64,000 nt of DNA from a virus (Duplodnaviria > Caudoviricetes), in IMG/VR virus record IMGVR_UViG_3300031974_004051, positions 1,991 to 65,990 of that record; one strand, 5' to 3'. Made by a program: the position numbers and the translations under genes. Under the pieces are notes generated by a model. It was not told the DNA's origin, did not search any database, and saw only the letters and a list, made by a program, of their open reading frames with translations. Shown in pieces: positions 33,925-55,658 of the stretch. The first letter of the stretch is position 1; each line of letters starts with the position of its first letter.

Positions 33925-34806
33925 TTACAAACTAAGTAACATATCAATAAGTTCCTTTTGTGGGAACATATCAACTTTGTCTTTTCTTGTGTTTGTGTGT
34001 GTCCATAGTCCTTTTATTTTACCATAGTACGCATCCTCATTAAATTCAAATGCCGAAACACCTATTTTTCTAATAGATTCAGGTAAACCTTTACGAACAT
34101 CTATCGAATCCCTCTCAGCGATGTATAATATCCATTTTCTTAACGATTCAATCTGAGAATCAGAATAACGGTGCCAAGTTTTATGACCTCTAAATTCTTG
34201 ATCAAGAGTTACTAATTGACTTTCATGTACTCTAGTACCAGCATATGTTTTACCATCTTTTACCCAACCGAAGTTACATACTTCAATACCAACAGAATGG
34301 GTGTGCATATGTTGTGAACCATTTTTACCTAAATGCCAACCATATCCACCCTCAGGTATACACTGCACCATTTCTCCATCATATTTGTCATCATTTCCCT
34401 TAACTGAAGGACCACCTAAAACAAATTCAGTTGCAACCGCACCTCTACTATCTCTCGCCCATTGATCTATACAATTATATGGATTGTGCCACCCCGCTGT
34501 GTGATGTAAAAAAACATACTCTTTGTCTGTGGGACCTTCTTTGTATTCACCAACAGGTAAGAAATGTCTATTTATGACCAATCCATTCTCCGTAACATAA
34601 GTTTTCTCTGAATTATCTGTTGTGGCTAGACCCATAGTGTCCCATGTAGATGGACCTACTATTCCGTCCACGTCAAGTCCATTCAATTTTTGGAATTCTT
34701 TTACTGCCTCAGCCGTACCAGGTCCAAAAATACCATCAGCACCTATTCCAAGAAATTCTTGAAGTTCTTTAACTTCTTTTCCTCTTGATCCTACTTTTAA
34801 TAACAT
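33925..34806 (-). CDS. endolysin: PG-binding domain plus N-acetylmuramoyl-L-alanine amidase
   Basis: ADGIFGPGT.EAVKEFQK..GL.VDGIVGP.TW; LHHTAG, SVGIEV, THT....K.D. Confidence 0.88.
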   Translation of the reverse strand: MLLKVGSRGKEVKELQEFLGIGADGIFGPGTAEAVKEFQKLNGLDVDGIVGPSTWDTMGLATTDNSEKTYVTENGLVINRHFLPVGEYKEGPTDKEYVFLHHTAGWHNPYNCIDQWARDSRGAVATEFVLGGPSVKGNDDKYDGEMVQCIPEGGYGWHLGKNGSQHMHTHSVGIEVCNFGWVKDGKTYAGTRVHESQLVTLDQEFRGHKTWHRYSDSQIESLRKWILYIAERDSIDVRKGLPESIRKIGVSAFEFNEDAYYGKIKGLWTHTNTRKDKVDMFPQKELIDMLLSL

Positions 34807-34817
34807 AATTTTTTTAT

Positions 34818-35045
34818 TTACTCTTTTTTACCAAAGATTTTTCCTACCTCGGCAATCCCAAATGATCCGAGTGTTATTACTACAAATGAATTATAGATAA
34901 ATTCTTGTATTACTAAGTCTTTACCTACAAATCCTGTAATGATATCTGCCGCTGCGAATACCACCATAATTGCGAACGACGCAAAACCAACTACTGATTT
35001 TTCATTAATGTCGTTCTCATCTTTAAAAATGTCTTTAAATGCCAT
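34818..35045 (-). CDS. putative holin (2 TM)
   Basis: 75 aa, two TM segments, charged C-terminus, immediately upstream of the endolysin. Confidence 0.6.
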   Translation of the reverse strand: MAFKDIFKDENDINEKSVVGFASFAIMVVFAAADIITGFVGKDLVIQEFIYNSFVVITLGSFGIAEVGKIFGKKE

Positions 35046-35157: not shown

Positions 35158-35247
35158 ATGGTCAAAAGAATTAAGGAATACTTGATTATTAAAACGATAA
35201 GACTTTGGTTCCCAATTAAAAAAGTGAGGTTATGGAGAATCATTTAA
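35158..35247 (+). CDS. 29-aa cationic amphipathic peptide MVKRIKEYLIIKTIRLWFPIKKVRLWRII
   Basis: TATTTATA at 35146-35153, 4 nt before the ATG; its stop overlaps the next start (TAATG). Not in the ORF track. Confidence 0.55.
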   Translation: MVKRIKEYLIIKTIRLWFPIKKVRLWRII

Positions 35248-35741
35248 TGAGTAATAGGAGAGAAATATTGGTATTTACGTTTGTAATATTGGCGATAATA
35301 CTAAGGTTATTACCTCATCCACCTAACTTCACCCCATTGACCTCACTATCTTTGTTCGGTGGTGTGATGTTCAAGAATAAATGGGTTGGTATGTCATTAC
35401 CAATAGTAGTAATGTTTACATCTGATATAGTTTTAGGTTTTTATAGTATTTCCTTTTGGGTCTATGGATCCTTTATTTTGATAAGTTTCATGGGTACTAT
35501 GTGGAAAAAAATGGATCTAAAAAATATTGTGTTATCAACACTGATCTTTTTTATTATCACGAATTTAGGGGTATGGATAATGGGTTACCCATTAACAGTA
35601 AATGGTTTAATTATGTGTTATACATTGGCACTCCCATTTTTGTTGAACTCATTGTTAGGTGACTTATTTTTTGGATATTTACTTAAATGGACGTTTAAGT
35701 TTTTTGAAAGGAAACTAATGCTCGGTTCGTCTATCGGTTAG
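35247..35741 (+). CDS. DUF6580-like multi-pass membrane protein (S-component-like transporter)
   Basis: RLLPHPPNFTP, SD...GFY, FFIITNLGVW, CYTLALPF, GDLFF. Confidence 0.75.
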   Translation: MSNRREILVFTFVILAIILRLLPHPPNFTPLTSLSLFGGVMFKNKWVGMSLPIVVMFTSDIVLGFYSISFWVYGSFILISFMGTMWKKMDLKNIVLSTLIFFIITNLGVWIMGYPLTVNGLIMCYTLALPFLLNSLLGDLFFGYLLKWTFKFFERKLMLGSSIG

Positions 35742-35791
35742 GACTTCAGGTTTTCATCCTGGCAAGAGGGGTTCGATTCCCCTACCGAGTA
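35720..35791 (+). tRNA. tRNA-Glu(TTC)
   Basis: Cloverleaf with GCTCGGT/ACCGAGT acceptor stem, TTC anticodon, GGTTCGATTCC T arm. Confidence 0.92.
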
Positions 35792-35793
35792 CA

Positions 35794-36219
35794 ACTATTG
35801 TTCTTTGACATAATTAAAATTTAAAATTTAAAAACATGGAAAATTTAGAATTTATTTTAGGTGCGCTCAGTATGATCGGTTTGTTCGGATTAGGATATGC
35901 TGTTATGGGTGTATTTAAGGTCACAAAACGTTCCGATGGTTTCGATGAAGCTATCAATGGAATATTCCACGATTTGGAAGATAAGTACAAGGAACTTCAC
36001 CTTCGAATAGACGGTGAAATAGATAGAGTAGATAAACTACACGATGATAATGTTCGATACACTGATCAATTATCTCAGGAATTGTATCGTTACATCGATA
36101 GTAGGTTTGATAAATTTGAAAATCGATTGAAAAAAATCGATAAAGATGGGTGTGAACCCGTTAAAAAATCTAAACAACTCTTGACTGATTAGTCAAAATA
36201 AACGTTAAAGAACAATAGT
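35794..36219 (+). repeat. 16-bp inverted repeat, containing boxA-like GTTCTTTGACA, that flanks a CDS
   Basis: ACTATTGTTCTTTGAC (35794-35809) pairs with GTTAAAGAACAATAGT (36204-36219), with one G-U pair. Confidence 0.8.
35836..36192 (+). CDS. single-pass membrane coiled-coil protein
   Basis: N-terminal TM segment, then heptad-like D/R-rich helices. Confidence 0.75.
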   Translation: MENLEFILGALSMIGLFGLGYAVMGVFKVTKRSDGFDEAINGIFHDLEDKYKELHLRIDGEIDRVDKLHDDNVRYTDQLSQELYRYIDSRFDKFENRLKKIDKDGCEPVKKSKQLLTD

Positions 36220-36247
36220 AAACCCCACAGAAATGTGGGGTTTTTTT
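36220..36247 (+). terminator. intrinsic terminator
   Basis: CCCCACA gaaa TGTGGGG followed by a T-run. Confidence 0.85.
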
Positions 36248-36267: not shown

Positions 36268-36298
36268 TTGATTTTCAATTATTTGTTTCTTAAATTTA
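36268..36298 (+). promoter_or_regulatory. sigmaA-type promoter for tRNA-Leu/Arg
   Basis: TTG-N20-TAAATTTA, just upstream of the tRNA. Confidence 0.55.
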
Positions 36299-38589: not shown

Positions 38590-38976
38590 GGGGGTGACTT
38601 GGAATTGATTGGCGTAGTCAATTATAGCAGGGCACGTAGTGAGATATTTCCTATCACTTAAATCTATGGAGATAATTTTTAAACGGAAACGTTTATTCAC
38701 AGATGGAATTAATGGGTCTTGTATCTGTTGATTCTAAAGTAGCGGTAGCCTAAGGAAACCTCTACAACGGGTCGGGACATATAACCTAGGAACAGAAGTC
38801 TTACAAAGGTGGAGAAACGACTGAATCGGAAATCGAGTCGTACATCTATTGGTGATGGAGGATGTAAAAATTCAATCACATATTTCGGAATATTGAGAAT
38901 CGATATTGTCCTAAACGTGTAGTCCTTTATGGTTGGGACGAGCAAGACGAGGGTTCGAAACCCTCCACCTCCACCA
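38590..38976 (+). ncRNA. ssrA: tmRNA; predicted tag (A)GNVYSQMELMGLVSVDSKVAVA at 38685-38753
   Basis: GGGGGTG/CACCTCC acceptor stem with G3-U70, GGTTCGAA T arm, encoded ACCA, internal tag ORF, terminator at 38979-39000. Confidence 0.93.
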
Positions 38977-54658: not shown

Positions 54659-55294
54659 TTAGGAAAGTCTACCGTGTACTTTTTGTGGGTCTACCGCTCT
54701 TTTGTTAATATGTACCGCATAGTGAAGATGTGGTCCCATAGAATTCCCCTTATGAGGGTCTCTACTTCCACCACCTGTGTAACCAATTAATTGACCTTTC
54801 GAGACTTCTTGTCCTTTACTTACAACCCACCTTCTTACGTGACAGTAAATAGTCTCGTATTCACCGTGTTTGATTTTTATTAAACCACCACATTTACCTT
54901 TATCATCATAAGCCTTAGTAACAACACCATTTGCGGGTGAATAGATAGGTGTGCCCGATCTTGCTCTTAGATCAACACCCTTATGAAACTTTGTGGCGTT
55001 ACCCCCAATATTTCTCGGACCGAAAGGACTGTTGATTTTTGTGTTATTAATGGGCCACATGTCTATAGTCTCAAAATCCTTTAAATCCATATTTTCGAAA
55101 TCGAATTCAGGATTCATAACAATTTTATCAAAAAATGCCTTACCAAGTGTCAGGTCTGTATCGTTTTCAGCGTCTTTTTTCAAACCAGCCCATGTGGTCA
55201 AAAAATCGGTCAGTGCGTCTTTTTTGTCCTCTTTAAGAACATGACCCTTTTTGATAATATTTATAAGTTGAGACTCTTTTAGTTTAATTACCAT
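54659..55294 (-). CDS. M23 family peptidase with propeptide-like N-terminus
   Basis: HKGVD, YCH, GPHLHY motifs. Confidence 0.9.
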   Translation of the reverse strand: MVIKLKESQLINIIKKGHVLKEDKKDALTDFLTTWAGLKKDAENDTDLTLGKAFFDKIVMNPEFDFENMDLKDFETIDMWPINNTKINSPFGPRNIGGNATKFHKGVDLRARSGTPIYSPANGVVTKAYDDKGKCGGLIKIKHGEYETIYCHVRRWVVSKGQEVSKGQLIGYTGGGSRDPHKGNSMGPHLHYAVHINKRAVDPQKVHGRLS

Positions 55295-55337: not shown

Positions 55338-55658
55338 ATGTTGAACTGGAGAAAAATAAAGGAGGTCTATCCTCGTTCTTATGGTAAGTTTGTTGAAACC
55401 ATGTTTCCTTATGTTGGTGTTATTGGTTTCACATCGCTTAGTTTGTTCGAAGTGAAGAAGTTATACTATTTTTTTGATAAAAATGGTATCTACTTAACAA
55501 TAGAACGAATAGGTCCAAGTCAATGGTTATACACAATATCTTTAAATGATGGTAGTGTATTATGTCCAAAACAATCATCTAAACAAACTAGAGAAGATGT
55601 TGAATTAGATGGTTTTATGGAATGCTTCAGAACTCTTAACGAGAGATCAATATTTTAA
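55338..55658 (+). CDS. hypothetical protein
   Basis: 106-aa ORF. Confidence 0.6.
   Translation: MLNWRKIKEVYPRSYGKFVETMFPYVGVIGFTSLSLFEVKKLYYFFDKNGIYLTIERIGPSQWLYTISLNDGSVLCPKQSSKQTREDVELDGFMECFRTLNERSIF

Follow-up and report, generated by a model that had tools for sequence, protein, structure and literature searches.

A conserved leader–trailer helix with a boxA-like motif encloses the gene for a small predicted membrane protein in phages of Bacteroidota

The two flanks of a gene for a 118-aa protein in the window (the whole 64,000-nt stretch of viral DNA that was analysed) are complementary to one another, and their long-range pairing is a conserved, co-varying leader–trailer helix that recurs around relatives of the gene. 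Judged by sequence match, the 5′ strand of this helix carries at its inner end the motif that occupies the boxA position in the rRNA operons of the host phylum. We propose, with a probability of roughly 0.55, that the helix defines and protects the ends of the mRNA and that the boxA probably recruits host Nus factors during transcription.

The features of the unit in the window are as follows.

35720..35792, + strand: tRNA-Glu, anticodon UUC (ARAGORN; the Rfam match, RF00005, spans 35720–35791)
35794..35809, + strand: leader (5′) strand of the closing helix, ACTATTGTTCTTTGAC, paired in the minimum-energy and centroid folds
35800..35812, + strand: boxA-like core GTTCTTTGACATA, in the loop-proximal part of the 5′ strand (GTTCTTT in 48/50 flank sets, described below)
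35810..35835, + strand: A/U-rich translation leader of 26 nt, from the helix to the ATG, not paired to the 3′ arm in the fold
35836..36192, + strand: CDS, 118 aa (ORF list)
36204..36219, + strand: trailer (3′) strand of the closing helix, GTTAAAGAACAATAGT, 11 nt past the stop codon
36220..36250, + strand: intrinsic-terminator-like hairpin (10 pairs; 36220–36243) and T run, abutting the closing helix

The sequence-only reading had described this order of tRNA-Glu, arm, 118-aa ORF, arm and terminator, and every element was recovered at its place. It had also described a 16-bp stem with a single G-U deviation, and this too was borne out: the arms, which have 394 nt between them, are complementary at 15/16 positions, and the only deviation, G35807 opposite T36206, gives a G·U pair in + strand RNA. 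A single nucleotide separates the 3′ end of the tRNA-Glu from the 5′ arm. Both strands of the helix lie in untranslated regions, with 26 nt between the 5′ strand and the ATG and 11 nt between the stop and the 3′ strand. When the 458-nt unit RNA was folded, the 16-bp closing helix was present in both the minimum-energy and the centroid structures (z = −7.8 relative to shuffled sequences). A search of the whole window against Rfam at gathering score returned four tRNAs and one tmRNA only, with no family on the unit. The window is itself part of a 66-kb viral record that CheckV estimates to be 21% complete.

Taken in this window alone, the inverted repeat is no rarer than chance. Two 16-nt inverted repeats with ≤1 mismatch and a loop of 100–600 nt occur in the window, against a mean of 1.6 in 30 first-order Markov simulations, and the arm pattern with ≤3 mismatches has two matches where 1.6 are expected. 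Hence, the case for the helix rests on its conservation in relatives. The second 16-nt inverted repeat (55120/55470) is A/T-rich and lies across a divergent intergenic region; we took it to be a chance occurrence.

The product of the gene is predicted to be a small protein with a single membrane pass and a coiled coil. A hydrophobic N-terminal stretch was read from the sequence at about residues 5–27, and the AlphaFold model consists of one long helix (residues 2–104; pLDDT 83). The window protein has a long coiled-coil-like helix and a C-terminal DKDGCEPVK tail; common to the proteins of its relatives are an invariant DSRFDKFE motif, the hydrophobic N-terminus and the long helix. Comparison of the 118-aa protein with Pfam and PHROGs gave nothing above threshold, and the nearest clusters in an Atlas search were viral and hypothetical. 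Atlas also returned a weak match (score 0.86) to a Mu-like releasin.

Relatives were collected by scanning viral contigs with a pattern and with tblastn using the 118-aa protein, and the best 80 of 105 confirmed hits, with 29–77% identity, were kept. Among deposited phages searched by tblastn, the gene was found only in the Flavobacterium phages vB_FspM_immuto (four records from three isolates, one record being the RefSeq copy). In the complete immuto genome it comes after an annotated tRNA-Cys, and the endolysin gene is found ~1.4 kb further downstream. A blastn search of the region against the phage collection gave tRNA matches only, and a pattern scan with the neighbouring DUF6580 gene gave no bacterial relative. 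We conclude that the gene is carried by many phages of Bacteroidota (Flavobacteriia). The carriers comprise dozens of uncultured marine and freshwater phages and one cultured Flavobacterium phage.

Flanking sequences were taken from the window, from the best 80 of the 105 viral loci and from phage immuto, which left 50 distinct flank sets once duplicates had been removed. Two loci in which the ORF runs off the locus (L007, L013) and two with a 3′ flank of <40 nt (L057, L058) were not included. When the 42 nt upstream of each ORF were folded against the 48 nt downstream, a duplex between the 5′ and 3′ flanks was obtained in 50/50 sets, with energies from −20.4 to −32.7 kcal/mol. For 17 clade representatives, the mean duplex energy was −24.9 kcal/mol with each flank's own partner but −12.8 kcal/mol with swapped partners. 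Consistent with this, the sequence of the outer helix is wholly different between clades, yet in each it is complementary to its own partner, as in the strand pairs ACTATCG / CGATAGT, ATACTAAAAGGAATA / TTTCCTTTTTAGTAT, CGGTTGTT / AACAACCG and ATATCAATGTA / TACATTGATAT. Across clades there is a single helix of 16–30 bp, and the distance from its end to the ATG is 17–26 nt in 14 of the 17 representatives, with 9, 20 and 30 nt in the others.

Pair counts were made on clade alignments (A2, A4), together with anchored duplex folding; a global alignment of 55 sequences (A1) was left out of these counts because its 3′ arms were misaligned between clades. In the clade with 90-aa proteins (35 sequences), 95.2% of cells were paired, whereas controls in which the partners were slid by 1–3 columns gave 38–69%. 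Three pairs in this clade have changes on both sides, one of which is a C-G to U-A change in 15 sequences. RNAalifold predicted the outer helix of the 90-aa clade unaided, and placed the inner 3′ strand in a small local hairpin rather than in the helix. The inner, boxA-bearing pairs are without two-sided covariation, because their 5′ side almost never varies. The window clade (11 sequences) had 98.9% of its cells paired; the sole double change is the window's own T35799/A36214 (U-A), which is C/G in all relatives, and one further pair is unpaired in 2/11 sequences. Conservation and covariation of the arms around homologous genes had been set beforehand as the test of the helix, and the 50/50 flank sets and the clade pair counts pass it. 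We conclude that the long-range pairing of the flanks is a conserved, co-varying leader–trailer helix.

The pattern of variation also indicates the molecule in which the arms pair. All three pairs in the window clade that vary on one side only do so on the 3′ strand, giving G·U or U·G. More widely, the 3′ partner of the near-fixed 5′ core has at least 11 variants (15 categories), among them ..AGAAC, ..AGAAT, ..GGGAC and ..AGAGC. The duplex is more stable as + strand RNA in 34/50 flank sets, and this advantage reaches 9–14 kcal/mol in five lineages (L001, L006, L014, L068 and L077). Because the one-sided variation, which falls mostly on the 3′ strand, gives G·U pairs, we conclude that the pairing acts in the sense RNA. 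The earlier claim of RNA-level pairing therefore holds, since one-sided changes keep the pairing through G·U, unlike in DNA terminal repeats.

These data bear directly on whether the arms could instead act as DNA, either as terminal inverted repeats of a mobile cassette or as the sites at which a switch is inverted by recombination. Invertible segments typically have inverted repeats on either side of a few hundred bp, and the gene with its arms does occur in several contexts, including tRNA arrays and positions after the terminator of a protein-coding gene. However, one-sided changes are tolerated only where a G·U results in sense RNA, and one arm is constrained in sequence while the other is not. 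Arm length and arm sequence follow the gene's own phylogeny, the ORF is co-oriented with neighbouring tRNAs in 21/21 tRNA-holding loci, and no target-site duplication is visible. Moreover, the enclosed ORF has no Pfam or PHROG match above threshold and no sign of being a recombinase, although it could be one of a new kind. We consider a role of the arms as DNA highly unlikely.

The position of the unit relative to other genes is variable, and its internal arrangement is kept. Where there is an upstream tRNA, the helix starts 1–3 nt after it; elsewhere, a promoter-like site or an upstream terminator precedes it by a few nt. The 3′ end of the helix adjoins a terminator or the next tRNA. ARAGORN, run on 81 loci, called in 13/81 a tRNA on the same strand that ends ≤120 nt from the ATG and in 15/81 one that starts ≤160 nt after the stop; the window and immuto have one more upstream tRNA each. 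The same tRNA-Glu as in the window precedes the unit in five loci (L008–L011, L013). In four others (L072–L074, L080) the unit fills the gap between two tRNAs, with the helix 1–6 nt from each; in large phages, tRNAs abut the unit on both sides. By eye, promoter-like hexamers were recognized directly before the arm in L001, L006, L012 and L014, and the terminator directly after the unit is kept in L001–L014. In three loci, a second copy of the motif (GTTCTTTGAC in L002, GTTCTTTGACAT in L003 and L005) stands after the terminator and follows a promoter-like site; in L003 and L005 this copy precedes a called tRNA-Leu array, and L002 ends before any tRNA. In the 90-aa clade (56 loci) the unit comes after the terminator of the gene before it and there is no nearby tRNA, and hence the tRNA is not an obligatory part of the unit.

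The near-constancy of the inner 5′ strand lies in a short motif: GTTCTTT is present in 48 of the 50 distinct flank sets, and the exact 11-mer GTTCTTTGACA in 27. An unpaired ACATA after the helix is conserved too. As a reference for boxA in the hosts, 80 Bacteroidota 16S loci were obtained with a published 16S probe. In the region from −220 to −40 of 16S leaders, GTTCTTTGACA with ≤2 mismatches was found in 48/62 Bacteroidota, as compared with 5/62 for the reversed motif; in Bacteroidota spacer windows, it was found with ≤1 mismatch in 34/44, against 0/44 for the reversed control. The spacer forms include GTTCATTGACA (23/44) and GTTCTTTGACA itself (8/44, exact). The boxA of Flavobacteriaceae rRNA is mostly GTTCATTGACA, one base off the phage motif, and in five Flavobacteriaceae genomes 7/9 GTTCWTTGACATA sites lie 116–157 nt upstream of the 23S gene on the same strand. 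The phage 11-mer agrees at 10/11 positions with the consensus GYTCTTTAANA as given in the suhB report (PMC5725501), a gamma-proteobacterial consensus and not that of the host phylum. The boxA-like match extends to 13–14 nt (GTTCTTTGACATA). On the + strand of the window, the motif starts 8 nt after tRNA-Glu and ends 25 nt before the ATG. The label of boxA given earlier to the 5′ arm is thus supported, GTTCTTTGACA being the motif found in the 16S leader and before the 23S gene of Bacteroidota.

In phage records the motif is specific to this locus, with one to two copies in record G000 and in the complete immuto genome. A general role as a phage promoter or leader signal was considered for GTTCTTTGA and rejected; each phage record has only 2–8 occurrences, a frequency close to that of the reversed control. 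In 4/5 Flavobacteriaceae genomes, the leader of the host gene for RNase E/G has a boxA-like motif as well, which indicates that boxA on mRNA leaders exists in this group.

The place of the motif within the unit differs from that in rRNA. The boxA of host 16S leaders precedes the leader–trailer helix, immediately on its 5′ side, whereas that of the phage unit forms the inner part of the 5′ strand, and so is not a single-stranded boxA outside the helix. Transcription of the 3′ strand would end the period in which the phage motif is free. The sequence-only reading held that the phage treats its message like a pre-rRNA; the conserved, co-varying arms and the boxA motif agree with this, but the boxA lies inside the helix and the tRNA is dispensable. 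In addition, two loci (L072 and L076) keep the helix and have no boxA-like core, indicating that boxA is not needed for the helix.

Given this last observation, the helix might be an element of RNA processing or stability only, in which case GTTCTTT would be kept for pairing or for another factor (as the site of an endonuclease, for instance) and the resemblance to boxA would be a coincidence or a relic of an rRNA spacer. That two clades keep the helix without boxA speaks for this reading, as does the fact that the core is paired and hence doubly constrained, and the motif differs at one position from the boxA of Flavobacteriaceae rRNA. Against it, the match of 13–14 nt is identical to the motif in the spacers of several Bacteroidota, variation is much greater in the 3′ partner than in the 5′ strand (at least 11 partners, as compared with the exact 11-mer in 27/50 flank sets), and conservation extends to the unpaired ACATA past the helix. 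We think it improbable that processing or stability is the whole function of the unit.

Our preferred reading, in which the helix secures the ends of the mRNA and boxA attracts host Nus factors, could operate as follows. The boxA would emerge first from the polymerase, single-stranded, and would be bound by host NusB–NusE. The 5′ strand would then travel with the polymerase for ~400 nt, to the point where the trailer strand emerges; there the helix would close, hiding the boxA and locking both ends of the mRNA in a duplex. This duplex could protect ends produced by the processing of tRNAs, or by transcription initiation and termination, against 5′-end-dependent and 3′-exonucleolytic decay. It might also be a site for host RNase III, which would trim the message out of a tRNA precursor; 16 bp is short for a strong RNase III substrate. 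The A-rich leader and the start codon would stay open in the loop. RNase III cleavage, Nus binding and stabilization of the message are steps that we infer. Two features of the unit bear on the part played by Nus factors. Since the boxA lies inside the helix, unlike in host rrn operons, the closed helix should exclude NusB/E. Furthermore, the enclosed RNA in the window is a translated one with a terminator immediately behind the unit, such that the classical purpose of antitermination is not evident there. More tentatively, it is possible that a host polymerase modified by Nus factors through the rRNA-type boxA transcribes the phage mRNA and brings the two strands together as a chaperone, with closure into a panhandle burying the boxA and so ending the modification just before the terminator.

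Host factors for this scheme are encoded in the likely host family, NusB and RNase III each being present in 5/5 Flavobacteriaceae genomes; neither was found in the five phage records (0/5), four of which are incomplete. The RNA runs (X15, X16, X17 and X20) consist of contigs that are mostly tRNA matches from other organisms; such contigs cannot show ends or strand and may hold DNA, and most of the ORF and the 3′ arm is uncovered. A 252-nt contig from an RNA library is identical to 35761–36012 and bridges tRNA-Glu, the arm and the start of the ORF, which is weak support, and contigs of a relative in two RNA runs of one study have GTTCATTGAA at the motif, a weak hint.

It had also been suggested that the message is circularized, the paired ends being joined into a circular RNA. 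Only the geometry of the adjacent ends favours this. The RNA contigs, which are poor evidence on this point, contain no back-joint over the unit, and we found no ligase or permuted-intron signature and no Rfam family at the unit. We regard circularization as barely credible.

An alternative function for boxA and helix would be negative control, in which NusB/E bound ~25 nt before the start codon represses translation, or RNase III destroys or silences the message, so that the membrane protein is kept low or is timed. icaR is a precedent for an RNase III target that destroys or silences a message. A boxA within 50 nt of a start codon has been linked, in the suhB report, to repression by Nus factors (PMC5725501), and the phage motif ends 25 nt before the ATG. 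The small membrane protein is potentially toxic and its gene adjoins the endolysin gene, and the boxA-like motif on the host RNase E/G leader (4/5 genomes) may also be counted in favour of such control. However, the leader and start codon are unpaired and the helix lies outside the likely ribosome footprint, as suits a translated message, and the unit often has its own promoter-like site and is then followed by a strong terminator. We therefore consider negative control unlikely, and favour the proposal that the helix defines and protects the message and that boxA serves to recruit Nus factors.

Helices of the leader–trailer type, together with boxA, belong to the textbook picture of rRNA operons. 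The processing-stalk helices of the E. coli rRNA operons have been described along with their boxA (PMC10250234). The phage unit resembles rRNA operons in that flanking complements form a long-range helix around a functional RNA, boxA is on the leader side, a tRNA can lie directly upstream as in the 16S–23S spacer, and the host has NusB and RNase III. It differs from them in that the helix encloses a translated 0.36-kb mRNA rather than an rRNA, and in that boxA is inside the helix at its inner end rather than just 5′ of it. The boxB and boxC elements of the E. coli leader are absent from the phage unit, as judged only from the 1-nt gap between the tRNA and the arm. Lambdoid phage nut sites consist of boxA and boxB with the protein N. 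In both cases, the transcript of a phage bears a boxA-type signal of the host, but no boxB hairpin or N-like protein was identified in the present case, the motif is enclosed by a helix, and the phages and hosts are unrelated. Similarly, mRNAs are released at flanking structured elements by tRNA punctuation of mitochondrial transcripts and in the RNase III-cut early mRNAs of T7; the flanks of the phage unit differ in pairing with each other, and its cleavages are hypothetical.

To our knowledge, there are very few examples, among them hbs, of a bacterial mRNA whose two ends pair with each other. [quoted passage not shown] Both are long-range duplexes between the two UTRs of one short mRNA, and the hbs mRNA is reported there to be highly expressed. 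The hbs pairing, as far as that account describes it, overlaps an RNase Y site, involves no boxA, is part of a cellular gene and does not form a portable unit, whereas the phage helix is at the very ends of the transcript. Like the phage unit, the suhB leader of E. coli and Salmonella has its boxA a few tens of nt before the start codon of a protein-coding transcript; the effect reported for it is repression, and in the account of that leader its boxA is not paired with a 3′ complement (PMC5725501). A full-text search of the literature, covering main article texts, gave no description of a unit of the present kind on a phage or bacterial mRNA.

The phage unit would be a widespread, portable version of the leader–trailer/boxA design of rRNA operons, with a protein gene of a phage at its centre. 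Phage immuto is in culture and, together with its host, offers a system for direct tests of our proposal. If the more tentative idea of panhandle closure by a Nus-modified polymerase is true, the unit would be a self-limiting module for antitermination and end-clamping that travels with its gene, and it may be one case of a wider use of boxA on Bacteroidota mRNAs, as the leader of host RNase E/G suggests. If the proposal that the helix guards the ends of the message and boxA recruits Nus factors is true, it would show how an mRNA can survive inside a tRNA precursor, and would extend Nus/boxA biology to the mRNAs of phages in a phylum that departs from the E. coli model in both translation and RNA decay.

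The boxA-like motif varies among relatives of the window. In two metatranscriptome runs from one study (X16 and X17), contigs of ~515 nt represent a relative of the window region, aligned at 35735-35864, and carry GTTCATTGAA where the window has GTTCTTTGAC; GTTCATTGAA is the motif in its Flavobacteriaceae rRNA form. At three viral relative loci (L002, L003 and L005), a promoter-like TTGATT-N17-TATATTTG lies 3' of the unit's terminator and is followed by a second GTTCTTTGAC motif, which reads GTTCTTTGACAT in L003 and L005. The promoter-like site and second motif are at ~3440-3500 in L003 and L005, and near the locus end in L002. In L003 and L005, tRNA-Leu and a 7-8-tRNA array come immediately after the second copy. 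Unlike these three loci, the window has no second motif after the unit's terminator.

The features around the unit and elsewhere in the window are as follows.

33925-35045, minus strand: endolysin (PHROGs peptidoglycan-binding and amidase matches) and adjacent 75-aa hydrophobic ORF
35232-35741: DUF6580 membrane-protein ORF (Pfam E = 1.5e-43)
36268-36298: promoter-like TTGATT, 16 nt, TTAAAT (or TAAATTTA), just 5' of tRNA-Leu, read by eye
38590-38976: phage-encoded tmRNA, downstream of the tRNA cluster
55120-55135 and 55470-55485: second 16-nt inverted repeat, ≤1 mismatch

The site at 36268-36298 may be a Bacteroidota-type promoter; it was not among the predictions listed by the sigma-70 scan. 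The DUF6580 ORF extends 22 nt at its 3' end into tRNA-Glu, and the gene and tRNA therefore overlap on the same strand. The endolysin and the 75-aa ORF, which likely constitute a lysis pair, are located ~0.8 kb upstream of the unit, and in the cultured Flavobacterium phage vB_FspM_immuto the endolysin is likewise near the unit, ~1.4 kb away. The tmRNA encodes the tag peptide VDSKVAVA and is conserved in relatives, including L001 and L008. The repeat at 55120/55470 probably arose by chance, since its sequence is A/T-rich and it lies across a divergent intergenic region.

A search allowing ≤1 mismatch to GTTCTTTGACA also identified the boxA-like motif ahead of a host gene. In four of five Flavobacteriaceae genomes it occurs at an equivalent position, preceding the RNase_E_G domain by 530-565 nt (host loci L204, at G004:C1:2345300-2346800, and L205-L209). 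In G004, the one genome in which the gene start was examined, the motif follows a terminator and precedes the start of RNase E/G by ~115 nt. The upstream motif may be a host mRNA-leader boxA in Flavobacteriaceae.
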